Shown one piece after another: positions 11,438-60,626 of a stretch of DNA of 64,000 nucleotides. Under the pieces are notes generated by a model. The model did not search any database and had not been told where the DNA came from. It saw nothing but the letters and a program-made list of their open reading frames with translations. The position numbers and the translations under genes are program-made. Source of the DNA: a bacterium. Its GTDB lineage: Bacteria > JAHJDO01. The stretch's first letter is position 1. Each line of letters starts with the position of its first letter. The stretch lies in assembly GCA_018812485.1 (NCBI GenBank), contig JAHJDO010000042.1, positions 9,512 to 73,511 on the forward strand, read 5' to 3'.

Positions 11438-11456
11438 TAGAAAGAAGCTGTGAGTA

Positions 11457-24945: not shown

Positions 24946-26988
24946 ATGAAGACAAACCTAATGCTATCAGTAGTTGTACCAGTTTATAATGACCAGAAAT
25001 ACCTAGAAGGGTGTTTAAGGTCTATATTTGGCTCAGATTACCCTGATTTTGAGGTAATAGTGGTAAATGATGCTAGTACTGATGATTCTTTAGAGATAGC
25101 GAGAAAATTCCCCTGTCAAATTGTAGATCTAAAAACAAATGCTGGTGTAGCCAATGCTAGAAATAAAGGGGCTAATAATGCCAAAGGCGATATACTGGTC
25201 TTTTTTGATTCAGATGTGGAAGTTGAGCGGGATACCTTGTCAAGATTTGCCAAAGCCCACCAAAGGACAGATATTAAAGTATGCCAATGCCAAATATCTC
25301 CTTGCTCTTTGACTCCAGGATATATTCCAGAACTGATGGCAGTAATCTGGAATTATGTAGCTTGCTTAATGGCGCCATATAGTACAGCTGTTCGTTCAAT
25401 GTCCTTTTCAATTGATAAATCAGTATTTTTTGAGATTGGAGGATTTAATACCGTTTTTAAGTCAGCTGGCGGGGAAGAATATGAGATTGGAAGAGTCATC
25501 CAACAGCACGATTACAGGATATTTCTAGACTCCTCATTTCGTATACACCATAATTTTGAGAATTTTTTATCAAGATTTAAGAAGTTATTTAGAAGAAGTT
25601 ACGTCTATGGAAGGTTTGTCCTTCAAAGAAACTTCAAACTCGATAGAGGCCATGGGACTTTAAAAGAGGGCATTAATTCCCTGCTTTCGGTAATTGGAAT
25701 CTTAGAACTTCTTATTTCGTCGTTTATAGGTTGGACTTTCCTTTTGTTTTTAGCTACCATTATAATCCAACTTCTTTCTGACCTTGATCAGGGTATTTAC
25801 GTCACTAGAAAGAAAGGATTATTCTTTTTCATTCGTTCAATCCCCATAACTTATCTTTGGTATTTTGCAATGGGTCTAGGGGTTATTAAAGCAGGATTAA
25901 TGCATTATTTTACAAAGGTGTGTTCGACCTTAAGGAAGATAACTTTTTTGTTATCAAAAACTCCGGCATATGTCATATTCTTCGTAACTGCTAAATGTAA
26001 CGCTGGCTGTAAACATTGTTTTAATTGGAAGAAGGTACAAGAACAGGGTGTATCAGACGATCTTAGTTTAGAAGAGATTGAAAAGATGTCTAAATCTTGG
26101 GGTAACATAAAATACATGACCTATAGTGGTGGAGAACCCAGTTTAAGAGAAGACATTGTGGAGATAACTCAAAGCTTCTTTAAGAATAACCACTTAGAAA
26201 TGCTAAATTTTATTACCAATGGCTTTGCAGTTACCTCAGTTGTTAGCAAGATAAAAAAAATACTGAGAACTTGTCCTGGTTTAGACCTTACAGTGAGTTT
26301 TTCTATCGATGGTCTTGGGGATCAACATGATTCAATAAGAAACGCACCGGGAATCTTTGGGAGAGTGTTAGAGTCTATAGATAAAATAAGAAACCTAGAA
26401 AAGTATTACCCTAACCTGAAAATACTTGCTATAACCACTTATTCTAGCTTTAACAGAGATAATATATTTGATATTGTTGATTATATAACTAAAGGATTAA
26501 AATTAGAAATGATCCTGAATTATGTTCGCGGGGATACATTGGAAAAAAGCGCAGACCAAGTTGATTTGGATACCTATATGAAAGCGACCGAGACAATCGC
26601 AAAGCAAAACGCAATCAATTCCAGAAGATCCAGCATAGTTAGGGCACTGGATAATGTCTGCTTTAAGTTAATCGCCAAAACAAAAGAAGAAAAGAAGAGC
26701 TTAATACCTTGTTTGGTAGGAAAAAAGCTTATAGAAATAGGTAATGACGGTAGAATTTTCCCCTGTGAGATGTTGGATGTTGACTTTGGTAATGTATGCG
26801 ATTTCAATTACGATATAAATAAAGTTTTAAAAACAAAAAAAGCTTATGATTTTTTTAAGTTTCTAAATAAAAGGGATTGCTTTTGTACCTGGGAATGTGC
26901 AATGAAAAATAATATCGTTTACTCTATACCGAAATACCCTAGTCTGTTTTTAGAATGGTTTAGACAAGGTTTAAGCTTAAAGAATTAA
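24946..26988 (+). CDS. Tri-partite fusion: N-terminal GT2 glycosyltransferase, central transmembrane helices, C-terminal radical SAM/SPASM domain
   Basis: The N-terminus is LSVVVPVYNDQKYLEGCLRSI...VVNDASTDDS...FFDSDV (GT-A). Hydrophobic segments follow (LLSVIGILELLISSFIGWTFLLFLATIII). Then comes FVTAKCNAGCKHCFNW (Cx3Cx2C) with SGGEPSL and a C-terminal SPASM-like CLVGKK...FPCEM...CDF...CFCTWECAM. Confidence 0.7.
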   Translation: MKTNLMLSVVVPVYNDQKYLEGCLRSIFGSDYPDFEVIVVNDASTDDSLEIARKFPCQIVDLKTNAGVANARNKGANNAKGDILVFFDSDVEVERDTLSRFAKAHQRTDIKVCQCQISPCSLTPGYIPELMAVIWNYVACLMAPYSTAVRSMSFSIDKSVFFEIGGFNTVFKSAGGEEYEIGRVIQQHDYRIFLDSSFRIHHNFENFLSRFKKLFRRSYVYGRFVLQRNFKLDRGHGTLKEGINSLLSVIGILELLISSFIGWTFLLFLATIIIQLLSDLDQGIYVTRKKGLFFFIRSIPITYLWYFAMGLGVIKAGLMHYFTKVCSTLRKITFLLSKTPAYVIFFVTAKCNAGCKHCFNWKKVQEQGVSDDLSLEEIEKMSKSWGNIKYMTYSGGEPSLREDIVEITQSFFKNNHLEMLNFITNGFAVTSVVSKIKKILRTCPGLDLTVSFSIDGLGDQHDSIRNAPGIFGRVLESIDKIRNLEKYYPNLKILAITTYSSFNRDNIFDIVDYITKGLKLEMILNYVRGDTLEKSADQVDLDTYMKATETIAKQNAINSRRSSIVRALDNVCFKLIAKTKEEKKSLIPCLVGKKLIEIGNDGRIFPCEMLDVDFGNVCDFNYDINKVLKTKKAYDFFKFLNKRDCFCTWECAMKNNIVYSIPKYPSLFLEWFRQGLSLKN

Positions 26989-28258: not shown

Positions 28259-29155
28259 ATGTCTGCAAGGATTGACAATATAATTTTAGGAGATAACCAA
28301 TTTTCAGGCGTTAATCATTTATCTCAAGCTCTCGGACAACTCAAGGCAATCAAGTTTCAGGATGATAACGAAATTAAAAAAATAATCGAATATGCGATCT
28401 CTCAAGGGGCGCAAGGCATGATGTTATCAACCCATGCAGAAGTGGAAAGGATTCTTAATATTATTAGAAACGACGATCTTCTTCAGAATAATCTTAATAT
28501 TTACCCCAATATTCCTGATATTGCTAAATATGTAAGACGAGCAACAACGCAGGGTGGAATAACAGGGCTAATGAAATCTATCCTGAGTCAGCTCAGCTTC
28601 GGTATGAAAGCCAGTCTTATAATTGAGGGCGGAAAAGGTCTGATGAAAAAAGATATTCTCAAGATGTTAGAAGTATTAATAGATTTAGAGATGGCTTTTT
28701 TTAGAGGTTTGAAAATAAAAGCCATATTTCTACATACCATAGTTGTTGATTTAGCGCTTGGCCTTGGCCTTGACCAAATACTTTCACACTACTATTCTTA
28801 TATAAAGGATAAATATAATGTTATTCCCGGTTTTGGGACTCTAAATCTGCCAAAACTTCTTAATAAACTCCAGATGTTAGGGATTGATTACCCGTTGATA
28901 ATGACATCGGTTAACAAAAAAGGATTTTATATGAATCCAAGCAAGGCAGCATGTGAAGAAGTTATAAACGATGGTAAGTGCGAGATTTTAGCAATAGGAA
29001 CGCTTGCATCCGGAGCCATTTCTCTGCGTGAAGCGTATGAATATCTTTTTTCATTTCATAACATAAAATCATTAGTCATCGGCGCATCAACTAAAGATCA
29101 TATTAAACAGTCTTTCGATTTGGTGAAGTCTTACCATGCTCATAGGCAACAATAG
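28259..29155 (+). CDS. Hypothetical protein
   Basis: The 298-aa ORF is co-directional and tightly packed with its neighbours. I recognise no motif in it. Confidence 0.3.
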   Translation: MSARIDNIILGDNQFSGVNHLSQALGQLKAIKFQDDNEIKKIIEYAISQGAQGMMLSTHAEVERILNIIRNDDLLQNNLNIYPNIPDIAKYVRRATTQGGITGLMKSILSQLSFGMKASLIIEGGKGLMKKDILKMLEVLIDLEMAFFRGLKIKAIFLHTIVVDLALGLGLDQILSHYYSYIKDKYNVIPGFGTLNLPKLLNKLQMLGIDYPLIMTSVNKKGFYMNPSKAACEEVINDGKCEILAIGTLASGAISLREAYEYLFSFHNIKSLVIGASTKDHIKQSFDLVKSYHAHRQQ

Positions 29156-31475
29156 GCATAGGATTAGTTCTGCTTTGAAAATAATATCTAAATTTTACAA
29201 TGAAGAGCTTGAAAGCATCTTTGCTAGAATCTTATACTTCTTTAACACGATTGATACATATTTTATTCTTGTAGGAATCAGCTCTTTTGTCATCGTTTTT
29301 CCGGGAAAAGTCAATGTTATAGTGCTGGTGCTATCTCTGTTGTTTGCGTTGATTACGGCAAAAATCGCTGATTTTTATCCCAGTTTTGTGATACTTGCTA
29401 TTCCTGTACTTATTATACTTGGAATTGTATTAGATCTTTCAGGGTCATTAATAATGGCTCTTTTTATTGTAAATACAGCCCTGTTTTTTATAATACAGTT
29501 TGTTTTTATGGGCATACCTGATTCAATAGTTGCCCGTGATATACGAGTTGCTTTTATAAAAATATACAATTCATTATTTACGGTTGCTCCAACAACAGTT
29601 TCTTTTTCTATGAGTGTCTTCTTTTCATTCTATGTATCCTTTTGTATAGCTGCAGCCGTTTCATGCCGAGCAATAAAGGATTATACCTTGCTTGGGGCAG
29701 CGGGAGTAATTCTCTTTTTTTGTGCTTTGCTTGCCCGTTCAATGCGACCCAAAAACCTTTTCAGCAAGTTCCATAAGCCGGATGTCAGGGCTAACCCGAT
29801 ATTTAAACGGGTAGTGATTCTGAATATAGATGGTGTAAGAAAAGATGTTTTTGACTCATTAAATTTACCTGCAATAGCCAGATTAACCAAGGAGGGTACA
29901 AGCCATGCATTTGGACTGGAGACTGTATATCGGGCGTTAACCAATCCTGCATTTGCAAGTATATTTACGGGTACTATTCCCAGTGTTCACGGCGTCCGCA
30001 GCAACAACTTCGGACAATCAATTGTAACAGAGGGTTTGCCTGATATTGTCCCGTCTATTGCATACGGTTCAATGCATGTTAAACATTTTTGCAAGAAGTA
30101 CTGGCAGACACGTATAGTCTCATTGCCCCGCCATTCCGTATATCTTTCCGACGATATAATGGTAGACTGGCTTAAAGATGATATGCTTAATAGACCAGAG
30201 ATACGTCTTTTTGTCGCAGATTTCAGCGAAGCGGATTTTCTTGCTCACGCCTACGGCAGTAAGTCTAGGCAATACAAGGAAGCTCTTCAGAGGATTGATA
30301 AGCGTATAGGAGATTTTATAGATTGGATGAAATCAAATAACATGTCAGATGATACAGCGGTTATTGTATGTTCTGATCATGGAATAGCGGCAATTGACCA
30401 CAGCTATCTTATAGCTGATTCAGAAAGATATGTGCCCTTTTTGATTTATGGGAAGGGTATCAAAAAAGGATTCCATATACAGCGGCCGGGAACAATTATG
30501 GATATTTGCTGTACAGTCGCATACTTTCTTGGAATCCGATATCCCTATAATTCAAGAGGACAGGTCTTTACTGAAGCGCTTGAGGATTCTGATCTTGAGT
30601 CAGAGAAAGAAACATTTGTCAGTAGATTCAACCAGTTGAAGTATGATGCTGAAGCTGAGCAGTACCATTGTGACCATGTTGAGATTTATGCCGGAGACGC
30701 ACAGTGGTGGGATCAGTGTATTTCGAAGTTTATAATGGACAAAAAATGCGATCTGAGAGTGCTTGATATCGGATGCGGCAATGGCTTTGTGGGTGAAAGA
30801 TTTGTCGCAATGGGGGTCAATTTTAGTGATTTTGTATGTATGGATATTTCTAAAAACATACTTGAGGAAGCTAAGAAAACGCTTGGGAAATATCCCGGAT
30901 TTTCCTTTACAACCAGTTTAGATGATGTTAATGGAACATTTGACATAATTACTGCCAGCTCGGTTTTTCATCATGTTGTTCATCCGGATAAGCTTGCAGA
31001 TATCATTGACAGGTTTCTCGCAGAAGATGGAATTGTGATTGGAAGCCATGAGCCAAATAAGGAAGCATTTAAAAAGAAGTTGTTTTATGCAGGAGCAGCT
31101 TTATATAAAGGAATAGGCGGAAGTATAAGTATTAGCAATGAAGTCGTGCGTGAGTTCAATGATCTGCTCCGTAACAGATATCCAAATGCTCCCGGCGTCT
31201 GCCGTGAAGAGATACTTCAGATGGTAGAGTATCACTCTCCTTTGGAGCAGTATGATAAGTCTATTGATTTACAAAGCGGGTTCATACCGGATGAGTTCTG
31301 CAAACTATGCTTTCCAGGATATAAAGTACTCCTGCTTGAGACCTACTCAACATTTTCTCATAGGCTATGGCTGTCAAAACATAAAAGAATACAATCTTTG
31401 CTTGTTGCTATGTTTAATCTTTTATTTAAACGGGGCAATCTCTTCAGATTCGTCTTGAGGAAAAAGGAGATATGA
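29136..31475 (+). CDS. Fusion of membrane-anchored alkaline-phosphatase-superfamily (type I phosphodiesterase/NPP-like) domain with a C-terminal class I SAM methyltransferase domain
   Basis: About six N-terminal transmembrane helices come first. VVILNIDGVRKDVFDS and VIVCSDHGIAAIDHS then match the metal-ligand motifs of the Phosphodiest/AP superfamily. The C-terminus VLDIGCGNGFVGERF...IITASSVFHHV is a methyltransferase motif I plus post-II. Confidence 0.55.
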   Translation: MLIGNNRHRISSALKIISKFYNEELESIFARILYFFNTIDTYFILVGISSFVIVFPGKVNVIVLVLSLLFALITAKIADFYPSFVILAIPVLIILGIVLDLSGSLIMALFIVNTALFFIIQFVFMGIPDSIVARDIRVAFIKIYNSLFTVAPTTVSFSMSVFFSFYVSFCIAAAVSCRAIKDYTLLGAAGVILFFCALLARSMRPKNLFSKFHKPDVRANPIFKRVVILNIDGVRKDVFDSLNLPAIARLTKEGTSHAFGLETVYRALTNPAFASIFTGTIPSVHGVRSNNFGQSIVTEGLPDIVPSIAYGSMHVKHFCKKYWQTRIVSLPRHSVYLSDDIMVDWLKDDMLNRPEIRLFVADFSEADFLAHAYGSKSRQYKEALQRIDKRIGDFIDWMKSNNMSDDTAVIVCSDHGIAAIDHSYLIADSERYVPFLIYGKGIKKGFHIQRPGTIMDICCTVAYFLGIRYPYNSRGQVFTEALEDSDLESEKETFVSRFNQLKYDAEAEQYHCDHVEIYAGDAQWWDQCISKFIMDKKCDLRVLDIGCGNGFVGERFVAMGVNFSDFVCMDISKNILEEAKKTLGKYPGFSFTTSLDDVNGTFDIITASSVFHHVVHPDKLADIIDRFLAEDGIVIGSHEPNKEAFKKKLFYAGAALYKGIGGSISISNEVVREFNDLLRNRYPNAPGVCREEILQMVEYHSPLEQYDKSIDLQSGFIPDEFCKLCFPGYKVLLLETYSTFSHRLWLSKHKRIQSLLVAMFNLLFKRGNLFRFVLRKKEI

Positions 31476-35932: not shown

Positions 35933-36988
35933 ATGAGTTCGAAGCTTACGACACTTATTAGAGGGCGTAAGGCAATGTTTAGCCTGTTGAAGTGTAAATT
36001 TAGCAAGAAGCGTATTCCGGTCAGAGCAAGCTTTTTGGTAACGAAATATTGCAATCTGAGATGCTTTTATTGTTACACTAAGGATATTCTAAATGATAAA
36101 AACGTACACGAGCCAACCATTGATGAGTTAAAAAACACTATTGATCAAATTTATGAGGCTGGATGCCGCTGGATAAACATTTTAGGTGGCGAGCCTCTTA
36201 TGAGAGATGATATCGAAGAATTCATTAATTATGTCAGTAATAAAGGAATGTTTATGGAGATAACCACAAATGGTTTTTTCGTAAAGAAGAGGATAAAAGC
36301 ATTAAAGAAAGTAGATCATCTTTGTATAAGTTTGGATGGAAATAAAGAGTCTAATGATAAAAGTCGCGGTAAAGGATCTTTTGAGAAAATCGTTGAAGGG
36401 ATTGAATACGCTGTAACAAACGGTCTAAGCGTAAGAGTACATGCGACACTATGCAAAAGGACAATGCAGGGTAAATCATTGGAGTTTTTGTCAGATTTTT
36501 GCAACAGACTGAAAATAAAACTGAACTATTCAGAGAACGGTCTGCCAGGAATAGAGAAGATGGATCCTGATTTTCTTCTTTCCAGAGAGGAAACCATGAA
36601 TTTCTACAGAAGTTATAAAAGTTTAAGGAATAAAGGATTTCCTATAATTAGTTCAGACGTGGCGGTAGAATATGCATCAAAATGGCCTCTTCAAGGACAG
36701 ACAATCATTTATAAGAAAGACCTTCACAAAATTCCAAAAGGCAGTTTTTATCCCTGTGAGCTTGGGAGAAGCCAATGTTTTATTACCAGTGACGGTTATG
36801 TATACCCTTGTTCAAAAAAATGGGGTTATGGGAAAAATCTATATGAGGTAGGATTTAAAGAAGCTTGGAATTATTTGGAAAATCTAGACTGCGTAGCTTG
36901 TAAAGAGCTTGGGACTATAGAGCAAAGTCTTATTACAGGTCTTAATCCCAGCGCTTTGTTCAACGCCATAACAAATTTTGCGCTATAA
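35933..36988 (+). CDS. Radical SAM/SPASM-domain protein
   Basis: The cluster motif is VTKYCNLRCFYCY with GGEPLM. The C-terminal region is CFITSDGYVYPCSKKWGYG...CVACKELG. It is a paralog of the 16623 gene. Confidence 0.7.
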   Translation: MSSKLTTLIRGRKAMFSLLKCKFSKKRIPVRASFLVTKYCNLRCFYCYTKDILNDKNVHEPTIDELKNTIDQIYEAGCRWINILGGEPLMRDDIEEFINYVSNKGMFMEITTNGFFVKKRIKALKKVDHLCISLDGNKESNDKSRGKGSFEKIVEGIEYAVTNGLSVRVHATLCKRTMQGKSLEFLSDFCNRLKIKLNYSENGLPGIEKMDPDFLLSREETMNFYRSYKSLRNKGFPIISSDVAVEYASKWPLQGQTIIYKKDLHKIPKGSFYPCELGRSQCFITSDGYVYPCSKKWGYGKNLYEVGFKEAWNYLENLDCVACKELGTIEQSLITGLNPSALFNAITNFAL

Positions 36989-37007: not shown

Positions 37008-37625
37008 ATGAACTGTAAATATTGTATAGATGATATAAAGTACACAGTGGAAGTTGTTGATATAGAGACAAAGTGCAAATATCATAAGAAAATAGGAGAG
37101 GTATATTCGTCATCAGCGGTTGCTCCTGCTGGTTTATGCCGCGAACTTTTTTACACAGCTTATCCAAGATGCCTGGCTGTGCTTTACAGCGGAAAGCCTA
37201 CGCGCGGATGGTTAAGGGGAAAAGGAGTGCGGAGTATGACTGTTCGGTGTCCTGCAGCAAACGGCATAAAAGTATTGATTAGAGTAGAAGATATTTTTAT
37301 CCCGCCGATACGCATGGTTAAGGAGCTTGTTGAAGAATTATGTAAAGTTATATATAGGCCATTGGATGGTCCTTTTAGAAAAGTTGCTATTGAGATTATT
37401 GAAACAGGTTCCGATTGTCCAAAAGGATATCACATGGGAGATACCTTTTACTTTAATGTAGATAAGCAAGATGAATTGTGTCCTGCTGGGTTTGCAACTA
37501 TATATCCATATTTAAGGCGTATGAGAAATACCAAGAAAAATAATGGTTTGCTACACTCAATTAAAGTGCACTGTCCTGATTGTGTCGGCGTAACATATAA
37601 TGTAACTATTAAAGAAGATAAATGA
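37008..37625 (+). CDS. Cys-rich protein with two internal repeats, resembling the uncharacterised TIGR04076 family
   Basis: Two copies of the module C-P-x3-5-G-x2-F ... P-x-G-(F/L)-C-x3-(I/F)-Y-(P/T)-Y are present: CRELFYTAYPRC...VRCPAANGIKV and DCPKGYHMGDTFYF...ELCPAGFATIYPYL...HCPDCVG. I place the start at the ATG at 37008, which has an AAAGGA ribosome-binding site. Confidence 0.4.
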   Translation: MNCKYCIDDIKYTVEVVDIETKCKYHKKIGEVYSSSAVAPAGLCRELFYTAYPRCLAVLYSGKPTRGWLRGKGVRSMTVRCPAANGIKVLIRVEDIFIPPIRMVKELVEELCKVIYRPLDGPFRKVAIEIIETGSDCPKGYHMGDTFYFNVDKQDELCPAGFATIYPYLRRMRNTKKNNGLLHSIKVHCPDCVGVTYNVTIKEDK

Positions 37626-37647
37626 TGTTGTTGTAATCGGAGGTTTT

Positions 37648-38142
37648 ATGCAAGATTTTAAAAATATTTGTAAATTCTGTAATGAGATAAAGTTGAATTT
37701 GGTTTGCGGTGGTAAAGAATTCGTATTGGGCGATATATTACCCGATAATATTTGTCCTCTTGCTTTTCATAGTATCTATCCTTATATAATTACCCTTTCG
37801 AAAGGCGGCTGGCTTAATTGGGTGGGGCATGATGAACATGTTATTGTAAATTGTCCATTTGGGCGTGGTGTCGCTATGTACGTTAAGGCTCCTTCTTTAA
37901 AATCACAACAGTATCTAGAAGTTGAGGTGATGAAAATCAGAGAGAATAACGAATGTTATAAAGGATATGTGTTAAAAAAAGTTTTTCAATTTAATATAAG
38001 CGATGAGAATATGTTTAAGTTGGGGTTATTATATAGATCTATTCCTTTTATTCTAAGCAGAGATGATGATAACAATAGTGATCCGATGGAAATTTGTTAC
38101 AATTTTGAAGGGGAAAAAGTTCAATGTCAGGTGGAGTTTTGA
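37648..38142 (+). CDS. Cys-rich TIGR04076-like protein, paralog of the upstream gene
   Basis: ICPLAFHSIYPYIITLSKGGWLNW...VNCPFGRGVAMYVKA parallels CRELFYTAYPRCLAVLYSGKPTRGWL...VRCPAANGIKVLIRV in the upstream protein. A GGAGG ribosome-binding site precedes the start. Confidence 0.4.
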   Translation: MQDFKNICKFCNEIKLNLVCGGKEFVLGDILPDNICPLAFHSIYPYIITLSKGGWLNWVGHDEHVIVNCPFGRGVAMYVKAPSLKSQQYLEVEVMKIRENNECYKGYVLKKVFQFNISDENMFKLGLLYRSIPFILSRDDDNNSDPMEICYNFEGEKVQCQVEF

Positions 38143-38948
38143 TAGATAAACTACGAAATAAGACTGTGCTGATTACTGGCGCATCGAAGGGAATTGGTAG
38201 GGCTATAGCCCTACTATTCAGCGGTTACAATATGAAAATTGGTTTGATAGCTCGTTCTGAAGATAAACTTAAAGAGGTATCCAATTGTGTGAATTCAGCT
38301 GGTGGCGAAGCTTTGATATTAAATACAGATTTGAGGGATCGAAAAGCCATAGAAGATGCAGTGCTTGAATTTAAAAATAAATTTGGTGAACCTGATTTTT
38401 TAATTAATAATGCAGGAATAGCTGCTCGTGGTTTTTGGCAGGATATTTCGCTTGATTCAGAGCTTGATGTAATGAACGTTAATTACACAGCAGCTGTTAT
38501 TCTTATGCGCCTTCTGTTGCCTGGTATGATGCAAGCCGACAGTGGGCATATAATAAATATTAGTGCGATTGCAGGAATATATACTGCTCCATATCAGGGA
38601 GCATATTGTGCAAGCAAGGCAGCTCTCCTGGCTTATTCAGTAAGTCTTGGTTATGAGTTAGAGAAGACAAATGTAAAGATTTCCTCAATATTATTTCCAG
38701 GTCCAGTCGATACTGATTTTTTGAAAAGCCCAAATTTTGAAAGTTTTAGAAAATTTAAAGATATAATATCTCCAGACCTTATAGCTCAGAGCGTTCTGTC
38801 AGTAATTGAGAATCCAAAAGAAATGGTTTTCGTAGGGCCACTATGGAAATTAATTGCAGCAAAGATTGCAAGTTTAAAGCCCGAATTCTTCAGGAAAATA
38901 ATTGAAAAAAAGAATACGCCTCCAGAATCTCTTGATGTTTTTAAGTAA
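38124..38948 (+). CDS. Short-chain dehydrogenase/reductase (classical SDR)
   Basis: VLITGASKGIGRAIA is the TGxxxGxG motif. NNAG is present, and the catalytic tetrad has Y at YCASKAA (YxxxK). Confidence 0.75.
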   Translation: MSGGVLIDKLRNKTVLITGASKGIGRAIALLFSGYNMKIGLIARSEDKLKEVSNCVNSAGGEALILNTDLRDRKAIEDAVLEFKNKFGEPDFLINNAGIAARGFWQDISLDSELDVMNVNYTAAVILMRLLLPGMMQADSGHIINISAIAGIYTAPYQGAYCASKAALLAYSVSLGYELEKTNVKISSILFPGPVDTDFLKSPNFESFRKFKDIISPDLIAQSVLSVIENPKEMVFVGPLWKLIAAKIASLKPEFFRKIIEKKNTPPESLDVFK

Positions 38949-38953
38949 ATATT

Positions 38954-40015
38954 ATGTTTGAAATTATTCTAGGATATATAGATTTTTTGTCTCTAAGAAA
39001 ACTTGGAGTGCTACCCAGAGCTGTGCGGGGCGTGTTCGATAGAGCTGTTCTTAAAAAGCCCCATTTAAGAGTAGCAGAGATTGCTACAACATTCATGTGT
39101 AATTCCAATTGTATAATGTGCTCTTGCGCAAAATTCTACAATTGCGAAAAAGAGAAAAACCGAATGAGTGTTTCTGAATATAAATCTCTTGGCAGGGAGC
39201 TTGACAAACTCGGATGTATTTCTGTAAATGTCACTGGAGGAGAACCGCTCATTCGTAAAGATATTGACGATGTAATTATCGCATTAAAGCCAAAAAATAA
39301 AATTGTTAATTTAATAACCAATGGAATTAATTTAACTCGTGAGAAAATAAAATATTATTCATCCATTGGTATTGACAGTATTGTTGTTAGTCTGGAAAGC
39401 ATTTCTGCAGAGGAGAATGATAAAATTCGTGGGCATGAGGGTCATTTTCAGGTAGTTATGAATGCAATTCAGTGGGCTAAGGAAGAAAAAGTCAAGTTTG
39501 GTATTAGTCTTACACTTGGAGATTTTAATTTTAAAAAAGTCTATGAACTGATTCAGTTTGCGCAAAGCAAATCGATTTTTCTTTGTATTGCCCATTGCGG
39601 TAGTATCGGAAAATGGGCAGGCAATGATTCAATGTTTCTATCTGGAAAAAACGCAATAAAAGTAATCAGCTTAATCAAAAAACATGGTAAGATTAAAATA
39701 GACTTCAGCGCAAATCTCAGCTTAAAGCCGGGCTGTCCGGCTTTTATTGAGAAGATATATATTACGCCGTATGGTGATGTACTGCCATGTACCTTTAATC
39801 CTATCTCGTTTGGTAATCTTCGCGAAGAATCTCTATCAATCATCTGGAACCGCATGTTAAAATTTTATAACGAAAATGTGCATAGTAAAACATTATGCTT
39901 GCGAAGTTATGATAAGGAATTTATTGGGAAATTCCTTAATCCTATAAAAAACATGAAACAGCCTGTACGGATAGATGAACATCCATATTTCAAAACACAT
40001 GGAAGTTTAAAATAG
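38954..40015 (+). CDS. Radical SAM/SPASM-domain protein
   Basis: The cluster motif is ATTFMCNSNCIMCSC followed by TGGEPLI. The C-terminal Cys pairs are CPAFIEKIYITPYGDVLPC and CLRSY. Confidence 0.7.
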   Translation: MFEIILGYIDFLSLRKLGVLPRAVRGVFDRAVLKKPHLRVAEIATTFMCNSNCIMCSCAKFYNCEKEKNRMSVSEYKSLGRELDKLGCISVNVTGGEPLIRKDIDDVIIALKPKNKIVNLITNGINLTREKIKYYSSIGIDSIVVSLESISAEENDKIRGHEGHFQVVMNAIQWAKEEKVKFGISLTLGDFNFKKVYELIQFAQSKSIFLCIAHCGSIGKWAGNDSMFLSGKNAIKVISLIKKHGKIKIDFSANLSLKPGCPAFIEKIYITPYGDVLPCTFNPISFGNLREESLSIIWNRMLKFYNENVHSKTLCLRSYDKEFIGKFLNPIKNMKQPVRIDEHPYFKTHGSLK

Positions 40016-40016
40016 G

Positions 40017-40832
40017 ATGAGTATGACGAAAACCCTGAATTTTCTTAGAGATAGAATAAAGACTGTGCCGGAAATCCTTATAATATTGGGATCCGGTTTT
40101 GCGAAAGTAGCAGATAAGATGAAAATAAGAGTCGAAATACCTTATCAGGATATACCTCATTTCAAGAAGACAAGTGCACCTACTCATAGCGGTAATCTTA
40201 TAGCCGGGAAAATAAACGGCAGGGATGTATTAGTGATGCAGGGCAGGTATCATGTTTACGAAGGTTATGAAATTAGTTTTACTACTTATCCCGTGCGCGT
40301 GGCAGCCGAATTAGGAGTAAAAAAATTAATAACCACTAACTTATCCGGCGGTATTAACGAGAATTTTAACATAGGTGATTTTATGCTTGTCAAAGATCAC
40401 CTAAATGTATCCGGTGTCAACCCTTTGATTTGGGATTCAGGGAGAACATCCGGTCAATTTACAGATATGTATGAAGCATATTCTTCGCATTTAATCAGGC
40501 TGTTAGAAAGGTCCGCTTCTGAATTGGGTATTACCTTGCATAAGGGAGTATTGGCCTATCTAACTGGTCCTAATTTTGAAACCCGATCTGAATTAAAAAT
40601 GTTAAAACTTCTGGGTGCAGATGCTGTTGGTTGGTCTCTGGTGCCGGAAGTTCTGGAAGCTCGCAGATATGGCATGGACGTTTTAGGTATCGTTTGCATC
40701 AGTGACCTTTCCAATCCGGATAGCTTCAACCCTGTTAATTTAGAAGAGATATATCAAATCGGAAAAGAAAAAGCTGACACACTATTTCTCTTACTGGCGA
40801 GTTTTATGTCTAAATTGCAGAATGGAGCTTAA
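40017..40832 (+). CDS. Phosphorylase of the purine nucleoside phosphorylase / 5'-methylthioadenosine phosphorylase family (PNP/MTAP family 2)
   Basis: ILGSGFAKVADKM, HSGNLIAGKINGRDVLVMQGRYHVYEGY and GPNFETRSELKMLKLLGADAVGWSLVPEV match conserved blocks of trimeric PNP/MTAP. Confidence 0.7.
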   Translation: MSMTKTLNFLRDRIKTVPEILIILGSGFAKVADKMKIRVEIPYQDIPHFKKTSAPTHSGNLIAGKINGRDVLVMQGRYHVYEGYEISFTTYPVRVAAELGVKKLITTNLSGGINENFNIGDFMLVKDHLNVSGVNPLIWDSGRTSGQFTDMYEAYSSHLIRLLERSASELGITLHKGVLAYLTGPNFETRSELKMLKLLGADAVGWSLVPEVLEARRYGMDVLGIVCISDLSNPDSFNPVNLEEIYQIGKEKADTLFLLLASFMSKLQNGA

Positions 40833-40840
40833 TTGGCTGG

Positions 40841-41521
40841 ATGAAAAAACTAATTAAAATAAGACGATATAAAAATGAAAAGCATTACGAAGTAAATATA
40901 GATGGATTAAAGCGATTATGTCCATTATATAAAGTTGCTCCTGAGACCTGGATTGTTGGAAATGAGCATATCTCTTTCGGCACAGATATAGAGTTTACTC
41001 AAAAAATTGGGAGAAAGCTGGCAGAAAAAATATCTAAGTTTAAAGCAGATTGTATTTTAACAGCAGAAGCTAAATCTCTGGGCGCAGCTTATGAAGTTGC
41101 TAGAAATTTGGGTCACAAAAATTTTGCCATCGCCAGGAAAAGCATCAAGCCGTATGACAAGAATTACATTTCCACGGAAATAAAATCAATAACATCCGCA
41201 AAAAAAGAGCTTCTGTACTTAGATGATTTCAACATTGCCCGCATTAGAGGTAAAAAGATAGTGCTATTTGATGACGTTATCTCCACATGCAGTACCATGC
41301 TCGGACTTATAGAACTGGCAAAAAAGGCAGGGGCAGAAGTTTGCGCTATGGCAGCAATCTGGCTGGAAGGCTCTTTGGTCTTTGAACAGTTCATAGAGGA
41401 ATTTAAAGCGGGGCGGTTAATACATATAGATATTCTTCCTATTTTTACCATTGGTAAAACCTATGACAAATTACGCAATAAAAATATTTCTATTGAAAGG
41501 CTTTTAGAGCGTCGGAGATAA
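40841..41521 (+). CDS. Type I phosphoribosyltransferase-domain protein, possibly an adenine/purine PRTase
   Basis: The PRPP-binding motif is KIVLFDDVISTCSTMLGLIELAKKAGAEV (hydrophobic-DD-hydrophobic...T). The gene sits immediately after the PNP/MTAP-like gene. Confidence 0.45.
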   Translation: MKKLIKIRRYKNEKHYEVNIDGLKRLCPLYKVAPETWIVGNEHISFGTDIEFTQKIGRKLAEKISKFKADCILTAEAKSLGAAYEVARNLGHKNFAIARKSIKPYDKNYISTEIKSITSAKKELLYLDDFNIARIRGKKIVLFDDVISTCSTMLGLIELAKKAGAEVCAMAAIWLEGSLVFEQFIEEFKAGRLIHIDILPIFTIGKTYDKLRNKNISIERLLERRR

Positions 41522-41523
41522 CA

Positions 41524-42468
41524 ATGAAAGGAAAATACCCTGGAGCTTATAATTTTCTGAAAACTATTGGAGTAAGAAAAGAAGAAAGCGTTCTTATACT
41601 GACGGACGAGCTTGCGGAGAGTGATGCAATCCAGGTAATAAGAAGGGTATTTTATGATAAATGTTCAAAAGTCAATGTAGAAACTCTACCCCTGGAACTT
41701 CAACATGATTTTCCCGAGAACGTTTGTCAGCTAATCGAAGATTTTGATGTAATAATTCTGGCAGCCAGCCAGTCCTGGTACCAGGTTCCAGCGAGAAGAA
41801 AGGCCAAGTACCGGAGCAAAAAACGGGTAGTGGAATGTTATAATTTGACATTGGAAATGATGAAGGAAGGTGCGTTATGTGCTAATTATGAAGACATCAG
41901 GCTTTTTACAGCGGATTATAAGAAAAGCTTTAAGCTCGGAGCTTCTTTGACCATAAAAACAGACCAAGGTACGAATCTTTCAGCAGTAATTAGAGATGTA
42001 TTTGATGAGACTGGGTGTTATGATAAGCCCGGGTCTGGCGGGAATTTACCGGCAGGCGAAATTTCTTTAGGAGTAACAGAAGGCGAGACCTATGGAGAAA
42101 TAGTTTTCGATATTAGCTTTGATGTACTTGGCAGATTAGAGAAAAAACCGCTAAAAGTTTTCGTAGATAAAGGCCGGGTAGTGAAAGTTGAGGGCAAGTC
42201 TAGAGAAAATTTCGAGAAATTATTTGAAAATGATGAGTACTTGCGTAATGTTGCAGAAGTAGGAATTGGTACTAATAGTTATGCTATTATAGGGCGGTCA
42301 GTGCTGGAAGATGAGAAAAAAACAGGGACAGCTCATATCGGTTTTGGAAATGACACATATTTTGGCGGTAATGTAGAAGGCTGTCATTTAGATGGAGTTT
42401 TCTTATCGCCAAAAATTACTGTAGATGGCAAAGATGTAATCGGAGATTTAGTGAGCAATAAAAGATGA
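41524..42468 (+). CDS. M29 (AmpS/PepS)-like aminopeptidase-fold protein, or hypothetical protein
   Basis: GNLPAGEISLGV and TAHIGFGND resemble the conserved GN(I/L)PSGE and HiAxG blocks of family M29. At 314 aa it is shorter than typical members. Confidence 0.35.
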   Translation: MKGKYPGAYNFLKTIGVRKEESVLILTDELAESDAIQVIRRVFYDKCSKVNVETLPLELQHDFPENVCQLIEDFDVIILAASQSWYQVPARRKAKYRSKKRVVECYNLTLEMMKEGALCANYEDIRLFTADYKKSFKLGASLTIKTDQGTNLSAVIRDVFDETGCYDKPGSGGNLPAGEISLGVTEGETYGEIVFDISFDVLGRLEKKPLKVFVDKGRVVKVEGKSRENFEKLFENDEYLRNVAEVGIGTNSYAIIGRSVLEDEKKTGTAHIGFGNDTYFGGNVEGCHLDGVFLSPKITVDGKDVIGDLVSNKR

Positions 42469-46059: not shown

Positions 46060-46869
46060 ATGAATACAGGAGAAAGACCTATTTCAGATTCATTTGAATC
46101 ATTACCCTCGCTTATGAAAGAAACGTATAAACTTTGTATAGAATATGTCAAAAATAAAGACGTATTAGATATTGGCTGCGGTGAAGGTTATGTAGATCTG
46201 TATCTCAGTGATGTGGCTAAACATGTGGCTGGCATAGATGTTGATCAAGGAGTTGTAGACAAAGCAAATAAACTATTTTCCGAAAAAAATATGACTTTTT
46301 ATAGAATGTCAGGTGATGATTTAAAATTCCAATCTAATTCATTTGATGTTATTATATCGTCGCAGTCTATTGAGCATATGAAAAATGATGAAAAATTCTT
46401 AAGCGAGGTACATAGGCTATTGAAAAACAATGGGATTTTTATTTGTACAACACCTAATAAACTTGCAATGGTTCCTCCGGGTGAAAAGATATATAATGAT
46501 CCGTTTTATCCATTTCACGTTAGAGAATACATGCCCCATCAATTCTATGGTTTATTGAGCAAGTATTTCAGAGAAGTCAAAAAGGTCTGTTTTTATAATC
46601 CTGATCGAAGCCTAAAATTGATTAAAAATCCAAGAGCAAAATTTATTTATCGAATAAGCCGTTTTAGAATCGTTAGGTGGCTTGGCAGAAATTCACCGTT
46701 AAGCCTAAAAGAATTTATTTTGTTTTTTAGGCAGAAGGAGTTAAAACCAAAAGATATGGGAACAGCTGTTTGTGATTATAACGATAAGTTAGACCTAGTT
46801 CCAGAAGTTTTATGCGGTATATGTATAAAAATAGCCGAGAGGAATAAAAAGGGGAAAGATTCTGAATGA
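46060..46869 (+). CDS. Class I SAM-dependent methyltransferase
   Basis: Motif I is VLDIGCGEGYVDLYL, and DVIISSQSIEHM is a post-II motif. Confidence 0.65.
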   Translation: MNTGERPISDSFESLPSLMKETYKLCIEYVKNKDVLDIGCGEGYVDLYLSDVAKHVAGIDVDQGVVDKANKLFSEKNMTFYRMSGDDLKFQSNSFDVIISSQSIEHMKNDEKFLSEVHRLLKNNGIFICTTPNKLAMVPPGEKIYNDPFYPFHVREYMPHQFYGLLSKYFREVKKVCFYNPDRSLKLIKNPRAKFIYRISRFRIVRWLGRNSPLSLKEFILFFRQKELKPKDMGTAVCDYNDKLDLVPEVLCGICIKIAERNKKGKDSE

Positions 46870-48611
46870 ATATAAAACCTAATCAATATATTTTCTTTTT
46901 AATATTATACATAGTTTTACTAGCACTCGCGTTAGCCCCTTATTATATAAACAATACAATTATATTAGGTATGGAAGGCGACTATGTTTTGGATTTTTCC
47001 GCTCATTTAAGCAAATTTACTTTTATGTGGTTTCCCGTCTATGGCGTTGGTTTACAAAATATGTCTCCGAGCGGGACAGGTCTTAATATTCTTTTGCTTT
47101 GCTTAATTGAAAAGTTGACAGGAAGTATACCTATCACGAATTTTGTTTTAATATTTTCAATTTATTTCTTTCCCTTTTTAGCCATGTATTTAGTATGTAA
47201 GGCAATAAAAGCAACTCCTTTTACCTCGTTTGCTATAGCGCTCTTTTATGTTTTTAATCCTTTTGTACTTTATTATCTGACTTGCATAAATCAATGGAAT
47301 GTTTTTGGTGTGACTGTAATGCCCATGTTTTTATGGGTTATCTTGAAGTACTATCATAGCAATTTTAAATTATTCTTTTTCTTTGGACTTATATCAGCGT
47401 GTTTTTCCTTTACTTATAGCAATCCCCCAATACTGGTAATAATACACATTTCAGTTGTGTTTTCCATGGTTATGGTGTCTTATTATCGTAATAAAAAATT
47501 TATCCTTTTAGAAATACTCAAAAAATATAGCATTGTAATTGTATCATTTATTGCATTCAATCTTTGGTGGATTTTGAACCTTTTTGTTGGGGCAGTAGCA
47601 ACCGCGAAAGAAATATATTCAGCCTCGTGGGCGCACTCTTGGTTAAACACAACAGTAAGCGGGCATAGGCCTATCCTTGCCAGGATGTTTTCTATTACAA
47701 CAATGATTGGAATTAACCCTTCATGGGACTTCTTTACGTGGTGGTATAGTACCATGCTTGCGAGATTAATTACTCTTGTCCCTATTTTTATGATAATTTA
47801 TTTCGTGCTGATGGTTAAAAGTAAAAAAACGAGAAATTCATTAAATCTAGCAATTTTTAGCACATTATTACTTGTATTATTTTTTGTAAAAGGGAATGCA
47901 AGTCCGTTTGGTTTTATTTACGATTTAATGTTCAAACATCTCCCATTTTTTTATATCTTTAAATCTCCTGTGGAAAAATTTGGACTCCTCTATATATTTA
48001 TTTTATCTGTGTTGCTGTTATTGATTATGAACGGTATTAAGGCTCATAAGTACTATAAACCAATCCTGTGTATATTTACAGTTTACTTAATCGTTTGCAG
48101 TGTACCTGTTCTTACAGGGAATATTATCCCCGATTATAATCTTGGCTCTTTGGGATATGGTTCGAGAAAGTATAAAGATAAAAATGGATACAGGCAGTTT
48201 AGAGAATCAGTTAATAAGGATAATTTCCAGTATAGAATTTTTAGTTTACCTGGTGTTGGAAACTATCAGGTATGTCTGCCTAACTATAACGGCAAGAAAT
48301 ACACCGGATTAGATCCTGTTCTCATGAATACTAATAAGCCTTTTATTGCGCCTTATAACGGAATAGGTGTACTATACAATAATATCTCTTCAGCTAAGTA
48401 TGCAAAACTTTTGGGAATATATAATATCGGGAAAATAATGATTAATGAAGATCTTATACCATGGTTTGGAATCATGGAAAAGGAAAGCATTCCGGAATTA
48501 AAAACAATATTTGATAAATCCATGGCATCAAAAAAATGGGAAAACATAACTCTTTACAATAATGAAGATTATTTTTTGCCGCGTATTTACACTTCAGGTA
48601 ATTCTAATTGA
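46866..48611 (+). CDS. Polytopic integral membrane protein (GT-C/YfhO-like or polymerase-like; function unknown)
   Basis: The 581-aa translation has at least 12 transmembrane segments in the first ~430 aa and a ~150-aa C-terminal soluble domain. Its N-terminus resembles that of the final ORF in the window. Confidence 0.4.
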   Translation: MNIKPNQYIFFLILYIVLLALALAPYYINNTIILGMEGDYVLDFSAHLSKFTFMWFPVYGVGLQNMSPSGTGLNILLLCLIEKLTGSIPITNFVLIFSIYFFPFLAMYLVCKAIKATPFTSFAIALFYVFNPFVLYYLTCINQWNVFGVTVMPMFLWVILKYYHSNFKLFFFFGLISACFSFTYSNPPILVIIHISVVFSMVMVSYYRNKKFILLEILKKYSIVIVSFIAFNLWWILNLFVGAVATAKEIYSASWAHSWLNTTVSGHRPILARMFSITTMIGINPSWDFFTWWYSTMLARLITLVPIFMIIYFVLMVKSKKTRNSLNLAIFSTLLLVLFFVKGNASPFGFIYDLMFKHLPFFYIFKSPVEKFGLLYIFILSVLLLLIMNGIKAHKYYKPILCIFTVYLIVCSVPVLTGNIIPDYNLGSLGYGSRKYKDKNGYRQFRESVNKDNFQYRIFSLPGVGNYQVCLPNYNGKKYTGLDPVLMNTNKPFIAPYNGIGVLYNNISSAKYAKLLGIYNIGKIMINEDLIPWFGIMEKESIPELKTIFDKSMASKKWENITLYNNEDYFLPRIYTSGNSN

Positions 48612-51690: not shown

Positions 51691-53199
51691 ATGAAAAGTT
51701 CAACAGATGTTTTATTTATAAATCCCGGTAATCATAAAAAAACATATCAAGGTTTATCAAAAGAATTCACAGCAATTGCTCCACCTGTCTGGACATCTTT
51801 ATTAGCTAATTATATCCGCAAGGAGGGGTACAGCGCTGCAATTTATGATGTAAATGTTGAAGGCTGGGATAATGGCAAAGTGAAAGAGATAATAGCCGGA
51901 TATAATCCTAATTTAGTTGTTATGATGGTTTATGGTCATCATCCGTCTGCTTCTACGCAAACAATACCGTCTGCAGGCCAAATAGCAAGAGACATAAAAA
52001 TATATAACAGGGATATTCCGGTTGCAATGGGAGGAACGCACCCTTCTGCTTTACCTGAAAGGACGCTTGGAGAAGAAGATATTGATTTTGTGATACAGGG
52101 AGAAGGAGTATATACAATAAAAGGATTAGCAGACTGGACAAAAGGGAAGAGAGATATTAAGAAGATAAAGGGATTATGGTGCAAAAATGGGAACCTAACA
52201 TCTTTCACAACACCGCCACCTGTTGTTGAAAACTTGGATGATGAGCTGGATAATTATGCATGGGATTTGTTACCTGAAATAAATAATTACAGAGCCCATA
52301 ATTGGCACTGTTTTCAAGAATTTGAAAAAAGCAGGCAGGATGATTTTTTAGATGTCAGAACGCCTTATATCGCAATGAACACATCTTTGGGATGTCCCTA
52401 CTCATGTAACTATTGCTGCATAAATGCGATATTTGGGAAACCTCGCATAAGATACTGGTCGTTAGATAGGGTTTTTTTATGGATTGATACACTTGTCAAC
52501 AGATATAAAGTAAAGAGCATAAGATTTGATGATGAACTTCTTATATTATCTTCTAAAAGAATGGAGAGATTTTGTGATATGCTCATTGAAAGAAGTTACG
52601 ACTTGAATCTTTTTGCGTATGGGAGAGTTGATACTATTCAGGAGAAACTTCTCGGGAAATTGAAAAAGGCAGGAGTGAATTGGATATGCCTTGGAATAGA
52701 ATCTGCAAATGAAAAGGTGAGAGCAGGGGTAAACAAAAAGATAAAAAAAGATATAAAAGAAGTGGTTAGAATGATACAGAGTAATAATATAAATGTTCTC
52801 GGCAATTATATGTTTGGTTTGCCTGATGACAATCTGGAAACAATGGAAGAAACACTTCAACTGGCGATGGAATTAAATTGCGAATTTGCCAATTTCTATA
52901 GCGTAATGGCTTATCCAGGTTCAGCATTGTATGAATGGGCATCTAATAAGAACGGTTATTTACCAAAATCATGGGGAGCATTTTCTCAGCACAGTTATGA
53001 AACTCAACCTTTGCCTACCAAATATCTCCCAGCGAAAGACGTATTAAAGTTCAGAGATGAAGCATATTTAAGATACTTTGAAAATCCAAGGTATTTGAAA
53101 CATGCAAAAGATAAGTTTGGACAAAAAGTAGAATCTCATATACAAAAGATGACGCAAATAAAATTAAAAAGAAAATTATTGGAGGAGAATTTATGTTAA
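51691..53199 (+). CDS. B12-binding-domain radical SAM protein (class B-like)
   Basis: The N-terminal B12-like domain (VLFINPGNH...LVVMMVYGHH) precedes TSLGCPYSCNYCCINA. Confidence 0.75.
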   Translation: MKSSTDVLFINPGNHKKTYQGLSKEFTAIAPPVWTSLLANYIRKEGYSAAIYDVNVEGWDNGKVKEIIAGYNPNLVVMMVYGHHPSASTQTIPSAGQIARDIKIYNRDIPVAMGGTHPSALPERTLGEEDIDFVIQGEGVYTIKGLADWTKGKRDIKKIKGLWCKNGNLTSFTTPPPVVENLDDELDNYAWDLLPEINNYRAHNWHCFQEFEKSRQDDFLDVRTPYIAMNTSLGCPYSCNYCCINAIFGKPRIRYWSLDRVFLWIDTLVNRYKVKSIRFDDELLILSSKRMERFCDMLIERSYDLNLFAYGRVDTIQEKLLGKLKKAGVNWICLGIESANEKVRAGVNKKIKKDIKEVVRMIQSNNINVLGNYMFGLPDDNLETMEETLQLAMELNCEFANFYSVMAYPGSALYEWASNKNGYLPKSWGAFSQHSYETQPLPTKYLPAKDVLKFRDEAYLRYFENPRYLKHAKDKFGQKVESHIQKMTQIKLKRKLLEENLC

Positions 53200-54023
53200 A
53201 AGATTTTAGAAAATTGGAAGATAAAGCCCATTACATCTGCAATCAAGTTTTGGATATGTGTATTAAGGCGGGTACTGGACATGTTACATCTTCACTTTCG
53301 TGCGCAGAAATTCTTGTAGCGCTTTATTATGGAGGAATACTTAATTATGATGCTTCTAATCCTGAGTGGTGTGATCGGGATAGATTTGTCCTGAGCAAGG
53401 GACAAGCAAGTCCTATTTTGTATACAATATTGGCTGATGTCGGGTTTTTCCCAAAAACTAAACTGGCTAAGTTTGGCCAGGCAAATGGTGCTGTTGGAGT
53501 TCATATGCAGTGCGATGTTGCCGGAGTAGAAATTACTGCTGGTTCCCTGGGTCATGGTTTAGGGATTGGGGCAGGTATGGCACTTGCGGCAAGAATGGAT
53601 AGAAAGCATTATCTGACTTTTGTTCTTTTGGGAGATGGAGAATGCCATGAAGGCTCAATATGGGAGTCTGCCATGTTTGCAGGTCATCACCAACTAAATA
53701 ATTTAATTACCATAGTTGACAGAAATTGGCTTTGCGCTACGGACTTTACAGAAAATTGCGTTCGTCTCGATCCTATGGATGAAAAATGGAAAGCATTTGG
53801 TTTTGAGGTAGTTAGTATTAATGGGCATAGTTTTCAGGAAATCTTTAGTGCTCTTGATGGATTTCGTTCAAGGAGACTCCATAAGCCATTAATGATTATT
53901 GCAAACACGGTGAAAGGTAAGGGAATAAGTTTTATGGAAGATCAACCGTTATGGCATTCTGTAGCTCCCAAAGGCAAAGACGCTAAAAGAGCAAAAATTG
54001 AGTTAAGTAAAAGAGGAGAGTAA
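53193..54023 (+). CDS. Transketolase N-terminal (TPP-binding) subunit of a split transketolase
   Basis: GHVTSSLSCAEILVALYY is the histidine TPP-binding block, and LLGDGECHEGSIWES is the GDG-x-x-EG diphosphate-binding motif. Confidence 0.8.
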   Translation: MLKDFRKLEDKAHYICNQVLDMCIKAGTGHVTSSLSCAEILVALYYGGILNYDASNPEWCDRDRFVLSKGQASPILYTILADVGFFPKTKLAKFGQANGAVGVHMQCDVAGVEITAGSLGHGLGIGAGMALAARMDRKHYLTFVLLGDGECHEGSIWESAMFAGHHQLNNLITIVDRNWLCATDFTENCVRLDPMDEKWKAFGFEVVSINGHSFQEIFSALDGFRSRRLHKPLMIIANTVKGKGISFMEDQPLWHSVAPKGKDAKRAKIELSKRGE

Positions 54024-54027
54024 AAAA

Positions 54028-54963: not shown

Positions 54964-54987
54964 CTAGGTAAACAAACTGACAAAATA

Positions 54988-55980: not shown

Positions 55981-55983
55981 TAA

Positions 55984-57748: not shown

Positions 57749-57766
57749 ATAAATAAAGATAGAATA

Positions 57767-60616: not shown

Positions 60617-60626
60617 GTTAAAAACA

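Follow-up and report, generated by a model that had tools for sequence, protein, structure and literature searches.

The closest described relatives of the two proteins treated here belong to the TIGR04076 family, which is listed by IMG as 'uncharacterized repeat protein, TIGR04076 family' and for which the searchable literature, synonyms included, holds incidental mentions only and neither a function nor a solved structure, so that the family is indeed uncharacterised, as a first-pass annotation of this DNA had stated. Its module of about 85 residues carries three cysteine positions, in the following called Cys1, Cys2 and Cys3, and is exemplified by P0030, a protein of 90 aa that consists of a single such module. 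The DNA in question is a 64,000-nucleotide stretch of the bacterial contig JAHJDO010000042.1 (positions 9,512 to 73,511, assembly GCA_018812485.1), hereafter the window, and the proteins are the products of two adjacent genes, A and B (NCBI names KKC91_03295 and KKC91_03300, each 'hypothetical protein [bacterium]'), which lie together with a gene for a short-chain dehydrogenase/reductase (SDR) between two genes for radical S-adenosylmethionine (SAM) enzymes of the SPASM type, rSAM1 and rSAM2. A and B have the module and the three cysteine positions in common with P0030, but they comprise four modules spread over two genes, with B degenerate and one site apparently lost. What is already known is that TIGR04076 exists as an annotated family, of which A is a member and B a divergent relative; the searchable literature contains no description of four modules split over two genes of which the second is degenerate, nor of a partnership with an SDR or of the cassette rSAM1-A-B-SDR-rSAM2.

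A matches the NCBIfam model TIGR04076 in two stretches and, with 60.8 bits (E 1.4e-16), passes the cutoff of 33, whereas B with 32.4 bits (E 9.9e-8) falls short of it by 0.6 bit. Homology of B to the TIGR04076 lineage can nonetheless be taken as secure from profile comparison by hhalign and from the natural fusion P0023, in which the strongest TIGR04076 stretch (residues 219-270) lies within the B-type part and of whose alignment (A4) 59 of 59 members match the model. The three-cysteine pattern of the module was likewise found, and cysteines make up 11 of the 205 residues of A and 8 of the 164 of B according to the translations. In A the strongest stretch is the C-terminal module (residues 125-193), and the internal repeat is significant, the profiles of the two modules aligning over 78 columns with an E-value of 2.9e-5. 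The C-terminal module of A furthermore matches both halves of B, the N-terminal one with the module's second half (E 2.6e-10) and the C-terminal one with its first half (E 7.3e-11), while the N-terminal module of A matches the N-terminal half of B with an E-value of 8.4e-8; since both halves of B are matched, B holds two modules, each of them partly degenerate. The first-pass annotation was therefore right about the likeness to TIGR04076, about the sizes and coordinates of both proteins, which agree with the open reading frames (ORFs), and about the two copies in A, but B is not the single-module protein for which it was taken. The repeated module it proposed is likewise real, although the motif as written is an approximate merge of variants, namely P-A-G-L-C in module 1 of A, C-P-A-G-F-x3-Y-P-Y in module 2 of A and C-P-L-A-F-x3-Y-P-Y in B.

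A and B are tightly packed ORFs on one strand, and an upstream extension of A to a TTG at 36978 is unsupported because the homologues all begin M-x-C-K-Y-C. Close homologues number 23 for A (47-69% identity) and six for B, and the close A family is rare, with six loci among 185,579 species genomes and eight in a scan of metagenome contigs, several of the loci from both contig scans being duplicates of each other or of known loci; one locus from these scans, L027, was a false positive from an UppS/BamA region. Searches of plasmids by tblastn with A and P0030 gave no match, a Pfam scan of A and B found no family at E <= 1, Fer4 and PqqD included, and searches of the PDB sequences with A, B, the module profile A3 and P0030 returned nothing meaningful. 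A homologue search with the 85-column module profile recovered P0030 as its single match, because the E-values were scaled to 5.8 billion sequences. When 1.84 billion representatives were searched exhaustively with a profile, 287 clusters matched at E <= 1e-3, 195 of them also at E <= 1e-10.

A and B very likely form one unit, each being one half of a split four-module TIGR04076 protein. When the best 150 clusters and the previously recovered proteins were parsed with a module hidden Markov model (HMM), 178 relatives resulted, among which 83 are two-module proteins of about 200 aa and five are longer proteins, and the four-module proteins comprise about 45 with the A-type part first and about 35 with the B-type part first; fusions in both orders are what is expected for two halves of one heterodimer. 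In P0019 (354 aa) and P0023 (331 aa) an A-type part is naturally joined to a B-type part in one chain, and the AlphaFold2 (AF2) model of the latter, made from a 59-sequence alignment, has a mean predicted local distance difference test (pLDDT) score of 94.9 and a predicted template modelling (pTM) score of 0.93 and is a single compact body in which the linker is not of low confidence. A B-like gene is furthermore found beside A in every related locus. The sole interruption, and the only broken A-B adjacency, is in locus L008, where the two are separated by a gene for a B12-binding radical SAM protein (10678-12114 of that locus).

The AF2 model of A itself, made from the A alignment, has a pLDDT of 82.4 and a pTM of 0.80, and each module follows the order strand, strand, long helix, strand, strand, with Cys1 placed in the loop that follows strand 1, Cys2 where the helix begins and Cys3 immediately past strand 3. 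As modelled, the fold is without counterpart among solved structures, since Foldseek found nothing in the PDB at E < 0.001 for either model (best E-values 0.057 and 0.085, TM scores of at most 0.23) and profile searches of the PDB sequences found no relative. Weak Foldseek matches to Anbu/proteasome, Arp2/3 and beta-clamp structures were not significant and were set aside.

The cysteine pattern is conserved in orthologues and in about 150 distant relatives. Invariant in the 23 A-type proteins are C3, C23, H26, C44, C81, C137, C158-P-A, H188-C189 and D191, together with the T-K-C-K-Y-H surrounding C23, and invariant in the B-type proteins are C8, C36-P-L, C69-P and C103. In 146 A-like regions, taken from representatives after clustering at 50% identity, the N-terminal module retains C23 in 140, H26 in 119, C44 in 142 and C81 in 140, and the C-terminal module retains C137 in 134, N150 in 130 and C158 in all 146, with C189 found in 127 of 127 aligned regions and D191 in 123 of the 127; Y25, Y52 and Y60 are highly conserved too. 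For 106 B-like halves the corresponding figures are 102/102 for C36, 87/90 for C69 and 77/78 for C103. C6 of A and C192, the second cysteine of C189-x2-C192, are not universally conserved. A proline follows five of the six conserved cysteines of A and two of the three of B, and according to the alignment and the AF2 model of A most of the conserved cysteines come from separate loops or helix N-termini.

We consider it likely from this conservation that A and B bind metal through triads of cysteines, and the manner in which cysteines have been lost suggests how such triads may be composed. When each module was aligned locally in 204 two-module units, the full six-cysteine state was found in 112, and in another 22 with the last position unaligned, while about 32 units are in the state of B, with an N-terminal module lacking Cys1 and a C-terminal module having Cys1 only. 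In at least 16 units Cys1 of the C-terminal module is kept although its own Cys2 and Cys3 are substituted, and this nearly always alongside Cys2 and Cys3 of the N-terminal module. Sites within single modules would leave both modules of B with a crippled site, yet these modules retain their leftover cysteines almost without exception, and inter-module sites are therefore the simpler reading, each site being formed by Cys2 and Cys3 of one module and Cys1 of the partner module. The sites of A would then be C44/C81/C137 and C158/C189/C23, with H26 as a possible addition to the second, and that of B would be C36/C69/C103, perhaps with C8, such that B would have lost one complete site and retained the other complete.

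The SDR encoded immediately downstream, rather than the SPASM enzymes, is the best-supported physical partner of A and B as judged from fusions and gene order. Pfam scans of long relatives revealed two SDR(adh_short)-B-A fusions (P0124 and P0106), a B-A-SDR fusion (P0148) and a fusion of A with an extended SDR/epimerase (P0129), and in 10 of 13 distinct loci the gene immediately after B encodes an SDR, a figure that includes loci which initially seemed to be without one and in which a lenient search found a divergent SDR directly behind B. In the window the last 19 nt of B, its stop codon included, also belong to the SDR gene. Taken together, these arrangements make it probable that A and B act physically with the SDR. 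The genes flanking the pair are SPASM radical SAM genes, just as the first-pass annotation had them, with the SDR situated between B and the downstream one, and a tight linkage of A and B to radical SAM genes is found across related loci. In most of them the gene immediately ahead of A is an orthologue of rSAM1 (58-82% identity), orthologues of rSAM2 (63-74% identity) occupy the equivalent position, and the core of the cassette in relatives is rSAM1 (about 350 aa)-A-B-SDR-rSAM2, the last with SPASM domain, followed by a further radical SAM gene. Its hosts include a Candidatus Uhrbacteria metagenome-assembled genome (MAG), an uncultured Thalassospiraceae MAG, an Omnitrophica genome, a marine MAG labelled Spirochaetales and several unclassified contigs. 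Distant four-module relatives also adjoin radical SAM genes and SDR or epimerase genes, and in locus L016 an SDR-B-A fusion is overlapped by a 355-aa radical SAM gene.

Recurrent companions of the cassette are a membrane protein of about 770 aa with alkaline-phosphatase-type and methyltransferase domains, GT9 glycosyltransferase and B12-radical SAM genes and either a trio of purine nucleoside phosphorylase (PNP), adenine phosphoribosyltransferase (APRT)-like and NicX-like genes or a PurH-like gene. The trio is found at 40017-42468 of the window, within the radical SAM block, where the PNP passes the model PRK08202 (287 bits, cutoff 218), the APRT-like phosphoribosyltransferase scores 132.8 bits against a cutoff of 143 and the NicX-like protein has 314 aa, while loci L001, L003, L007 and L015, from other lineages, have a PurH-like AICARFT_IMPCHas gene in place of the trio. 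These genes could serve in salvage of the by-product 5'-deoxyadenosine or in providing a purine-derived building block. A logic like that of hopanoid synthesis, with adenosylation by HpnH, cleavage by HpnG and HpnJ, was considered for the cassette and not adopted, because the PNP is of the inosine/guanosine type and the leading matches include neither HpnG nor HpnH.

As to what A and B may do, we tentatively favour an explanation that as a whole has somewhat less than an even chance of being correct. A and B would assemble as a compact, pseudo-symmetric heterodimer with three cysteine-based metal sites between its modules, and this unit would be an accessory subunit dedicated to the NADP(H)-dependent SDR; alongside the SPASM radical SAM enzymes encoded on either side, it would work on one intermediate in the making of a cell-envelope glycoconjugate. 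The three centres would be Fe-S centres, by which the unit would act as an electron relay or sink for one or more radical SAM dehydrogenation or dehydration steps, and the attached SDR would reduce or oxidise the keto or enol product by hydride transfer. That the metal is Fe-S may be regarded as evenly balanced; it is favoured because the Cys-Pro ligands derive from separate loops and helix N-termini, because the array in the window that includes 12 radical SAM genes shows neither a ferredoxin nor a flavodoxin gene, and because of P0067 (654 aa, L019 18-1982), in which three TIGR04076 modules are fused to a DUF362 and a 2x[4Fe-4S] ferredoxin domain. DUF362 shares its Pfam clan with DUF2088, the LarA family (PMC11770544). 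In L019 a B12-radical SAM gene and then a GT2 gene stand behind that of P0067.

The role as an electron relay is itself held to be less than evenly likely, and several observations weigh against the favoured explanation. SDRs transfer hydride and carry no flavin, and we know of no way in which the NAD(P)H of an SDR could reduce a fused Fe-S unit, so that a partner of this type weakens an electron relay and rather favours a substrate-linked or structural role. No similarity to a known Fe-S protein was found either in sequence (Pfam, PDB, hhalign) or in fold (Foldseek against the PDB), no fusion of the A/B unit to a radical SAM domain was found among the relatives, and the putative geometry of the inter-module sites is read from the pattern of cysteine loss. 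Furthermore, some hosts are aerobes (Thalassospiraceae), and the spacing C-x2-C ... C-x2-H at the N-terminus of A (C3, C6, C23, H26) resembles a zinc knuckle.

The last two points also speak for a structural-zinc adaptor, in which zinc would only stabilise the fold and a non-redox scaffold would tether the SDR to the radical SAM enzymes, channelling an unstable keto or radical-derived intermediate between them. Such an adaptor is likewise in agreement with the fusions to SDRs and none to flavoproteins, with the compact and confidently predicted fold lacking obvious enzyme homology, and with weak, sub-threshold matches to YnfU (12 bits) and Anti-TRAP (13.2 bits), which are families that bind zinc. 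However, the conserved ligands are mostly single Cys-Pro cysteines from distant loops and not paired CxxC knuckles, the second cysteines that would complete such pairs, C6 and C192, are the very ones that are not universal, one relative (P0067) is fused to two ferredoxin domains, and the conserved Y25, Y52, Y60, N150 and D191 exceed what a pure scaffold would need. We hold this adaptor to be unlikely.

The metal sites might instead be catalytic. [4Fe-4S] sites with three cysteines are characteristic of IspH, NadA and dehydratases of the aconitase type, and exactly three conserved cysteines are available for each proposed site of A and B, with H26, Y25, N150 and D191 predicted to be nearby, so the site might be a [4Fe-4S] cluster with an open iron, or a zinc-water Lewis acid, of a dehydratase, isomerase or lyase acting on a sugar or polyol, the product of which the SDR would then reduce or oxidise. 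The fusion partners SDR, extended SDR and DUF362, all of C-OH/C=O chemistry, fit this well, but the loss in B of one of two sites and of much of one module would be odd unless A alone were catalytic, C3/C6 of A and C8 of B may provide a fourth ligand and thus close the site, and Foldseek found no likeness to a known enzyme fold in the PDB; a catalytic function is judged decidedly unlikely. Finally, the possibility raised in the first-pass annotation that A and/or B are substrates, modified by the SPASM enzymes as a precursor of a ribosomally synthesised and post-translationally modified peptide (RiPP) or as a protein-derived cofactor, is very improbable, for although both are cysteine-rich and encoded between SPASM-type genes, and although many characterised SPASM relatives act on peptides and peptide maturases are among the distant NCBIfam matches, the proteins are conserved over their full length without a hypervariable core or leader, are confidently predicted to be globular (models of A and P0023), have no Pfam match of the PqqD-like RiPP recognition element kind and are fused to SDR enzymes, and the surrounding genes, which encode glycosyltransferases, epimerases and nucleotidyl transferases, make this a glycan locus, in which no peptidase or RiPP recognition element was found and none of the radical SAM genes tested, rSAM1 included, reaches the cutoff of any NCBIfam model, those for peptide maturases included. 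Of the roles initially proposed, a metal or Fe-S partner or a scaffold hence remains the best class.

The Fe-S electron relay or sink considered above would have consequences beyond this locus. In its strongest form, with the A/B unit as an Fe-S fold new to science and an obligate third component of a radical SAM and SDR system for envelope sugars, the proposal is somewhat unlikely, but if true it would provide a first function for the widespread TIGR04076 family and explain the electron balance of such radical SAM steps. For a family without function the locus in any case offers a putative heterodimer, an SDR partner indicated by four independent fusions, rSAM1 and rSAM2 as neighbours and a prediction of the metal sites. 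A and B furthermore mark a rare, horizontally scattered and radical SAM-rich cassette in envelope glycan loci of uncultured bacteria (candidate phyla radiation (CPR), Omnitrophica and marine MAGs), and their role, once worked out, would help to decode the chemistry of the cassette and could reveal a new metalloprotein fold. The features of the cassette are collected in Table 1.

Table 1. Positions in the window of the genes A and B, their modules and the neighbouring members of the cassette
Feature	Position	Strand	Remarks
Radical SAM/SPASM enzyme rSAM1	35933..36988	+	351 aa; Radical_SAM 88.4 bits, Fer4_12, SPASM 24.2 bits
Protein A, two-module TIGR04076 protein	37008..37625	+	205 aa; ATG start
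A N-terminal module, residues 9-96	37032..37295	+	Cys1 C23 (TKCKYH), Cys2 C44, Cys3 C81-P
A linker helix, residues 99-115	37302..37352	+	From the AF2 model; residues 97-113 in the fusion model
A C-terminal module, residues 122-203	37371..37616	+	Cys1 C137-P, Cys2 C158-P-A, Cys3 H188-C189-P-D191
GGAGG ribosome-binding site ahead of B	37639-37643	+	
Protein B, degenerate two-module TIGR04076 protein	37648..38142	+	164 aa
B N-terminal module, residues 12-85	37681..37902	+	Without Cys1; retains Cys2 C36-P and Cys3 C69-P
B C-terminal module, residues 86-164	37903..38139	+	Only Cys1 (C103) retained; second half of module degenerate
Classical NADP(H)-type SDR	38124..38948	+	274 aa; adh_short 158.9 bits; TGxxxGIG and YxxxK motifs
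Radical SAM/SPASM enzyme rSAM2	38954..40015	+	353 aa; Radical_SAM 79.6 bits, SPASM 36.6 bits

The cassette is part of an array of about 50 genes that runs uninterrupted on one strand for about 59 kb (3709-62746), with a steadily positive GC skew in DNA of 35% GC, and that is an envelope glycan locus. It encodes glycosyltransferases of families GT1, GT2 and GT9, membrane proteins resembling PMT_2, YfhO and Wzx, and enzymes of sugar metabolism such as epimerases, DegT, a nucleoside triphosphate (NTP) transferase, a GHMP kinase and a split transketolase, and its 12 radical SAM genes comprise six of the B12-binding type, four with SPASM domain, one plain and one fused to a GT2 domain. The last is a single ORF of 680 aa (24946-26988) with the GT2 domain N-terminal and the radical SAM domain C-terminal, directly after a GT9 heptosyltransferase-like gene. 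The large membrane protein mentioned among the companions is represented at 29136-31475 by a protein of 779 aa with an alkaline-phosphatase-superfamily (Phosphodiest) and a class I methyltransferase domain, whose N-terminal region is hydrophobic and presumably membrane-spanning as read from the translation, and orthologues with 47-60% identity are found in nearly all related cassettes. At 53193-58468 the split transketolase (an N-terminal part followed by the pyrimidine-binding and C-terminal parts) and the GHMP kinase are accompanied by a NUDIX hydrolase, a nucleotidyl transferase and an aminotransferase of the DegT type, and this set has the appearance of a module that provides an unusual sugar as nucleotide sugar. 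Five ORFs of 707, 316, 369, 581 and 298 aa (58493-62746, 46866-48611 and 28259-29155) are without Pfam match, and those of 581 and 298 aa are without match in an NCBIfam scan as well; related loci carry a DUF6798 membrane protein where the window has the 581-aa ORF. A DUF1559 (SBP_bac_10) protein is encoded at 2213-2917 on the minus strand, and proteins of this type are associated with the Planctomycetes-Verrucomicrobia-Chlamydiae (PVC) superphylum; in combination with the GC content of 35% and the relatives of the cassette in Omnitrophica, it hints at an Omnitrophota-like source of the DNA.

Outside the TIGR04076 family, three known systems invite comparison. The scaffold IscU resembles A in having three cysteines, a histidine before the third of them (K-x-H-C) and Cys2 at the N-terminus of a helix, but homology can be dismissed, since hhalign gave a probability of 0.4% and an E-value of 0.15 over only seven aligned residues and the topology differs. 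Small ferredoxins and the dedicated Fe-S electron carriers of radical SAM systems are, like A and B, small, cytoplasmic and cysteine-rich proteins with Cys-Pro, and A and B are likewise encoded in a block rich in radical SAM genes. They are however without a CxxCxxCxxxCP motif or a Fer4 match, their cysteines are 20-45 residues apart, their predicted fold is a repeated strand-strand-helix-strand-strand unit and their ligands would come from separate modules. The third system is AprD4/AprD3, in which a radical SAM diol dehydratase and an NADPH-dependent reductase cooperate in the deoxygenation of aminoglycosides. Here, too, radical SAM genes and a gene for an SDR-type reductase stand side by side in a sugar-modifying cluster, and a B12-type radical SAM protein at 34423 of the window matches the AprD4 model distantly (99.3 bits, cutoff 500), but rSAM1 and rSAM2 are of the SPASM type and not AprD4-like, and whereas AprD4/AprD3 is a pair without a third, cysteine-rich subunit, the present cassette has the genes A and B alongside its reductase.

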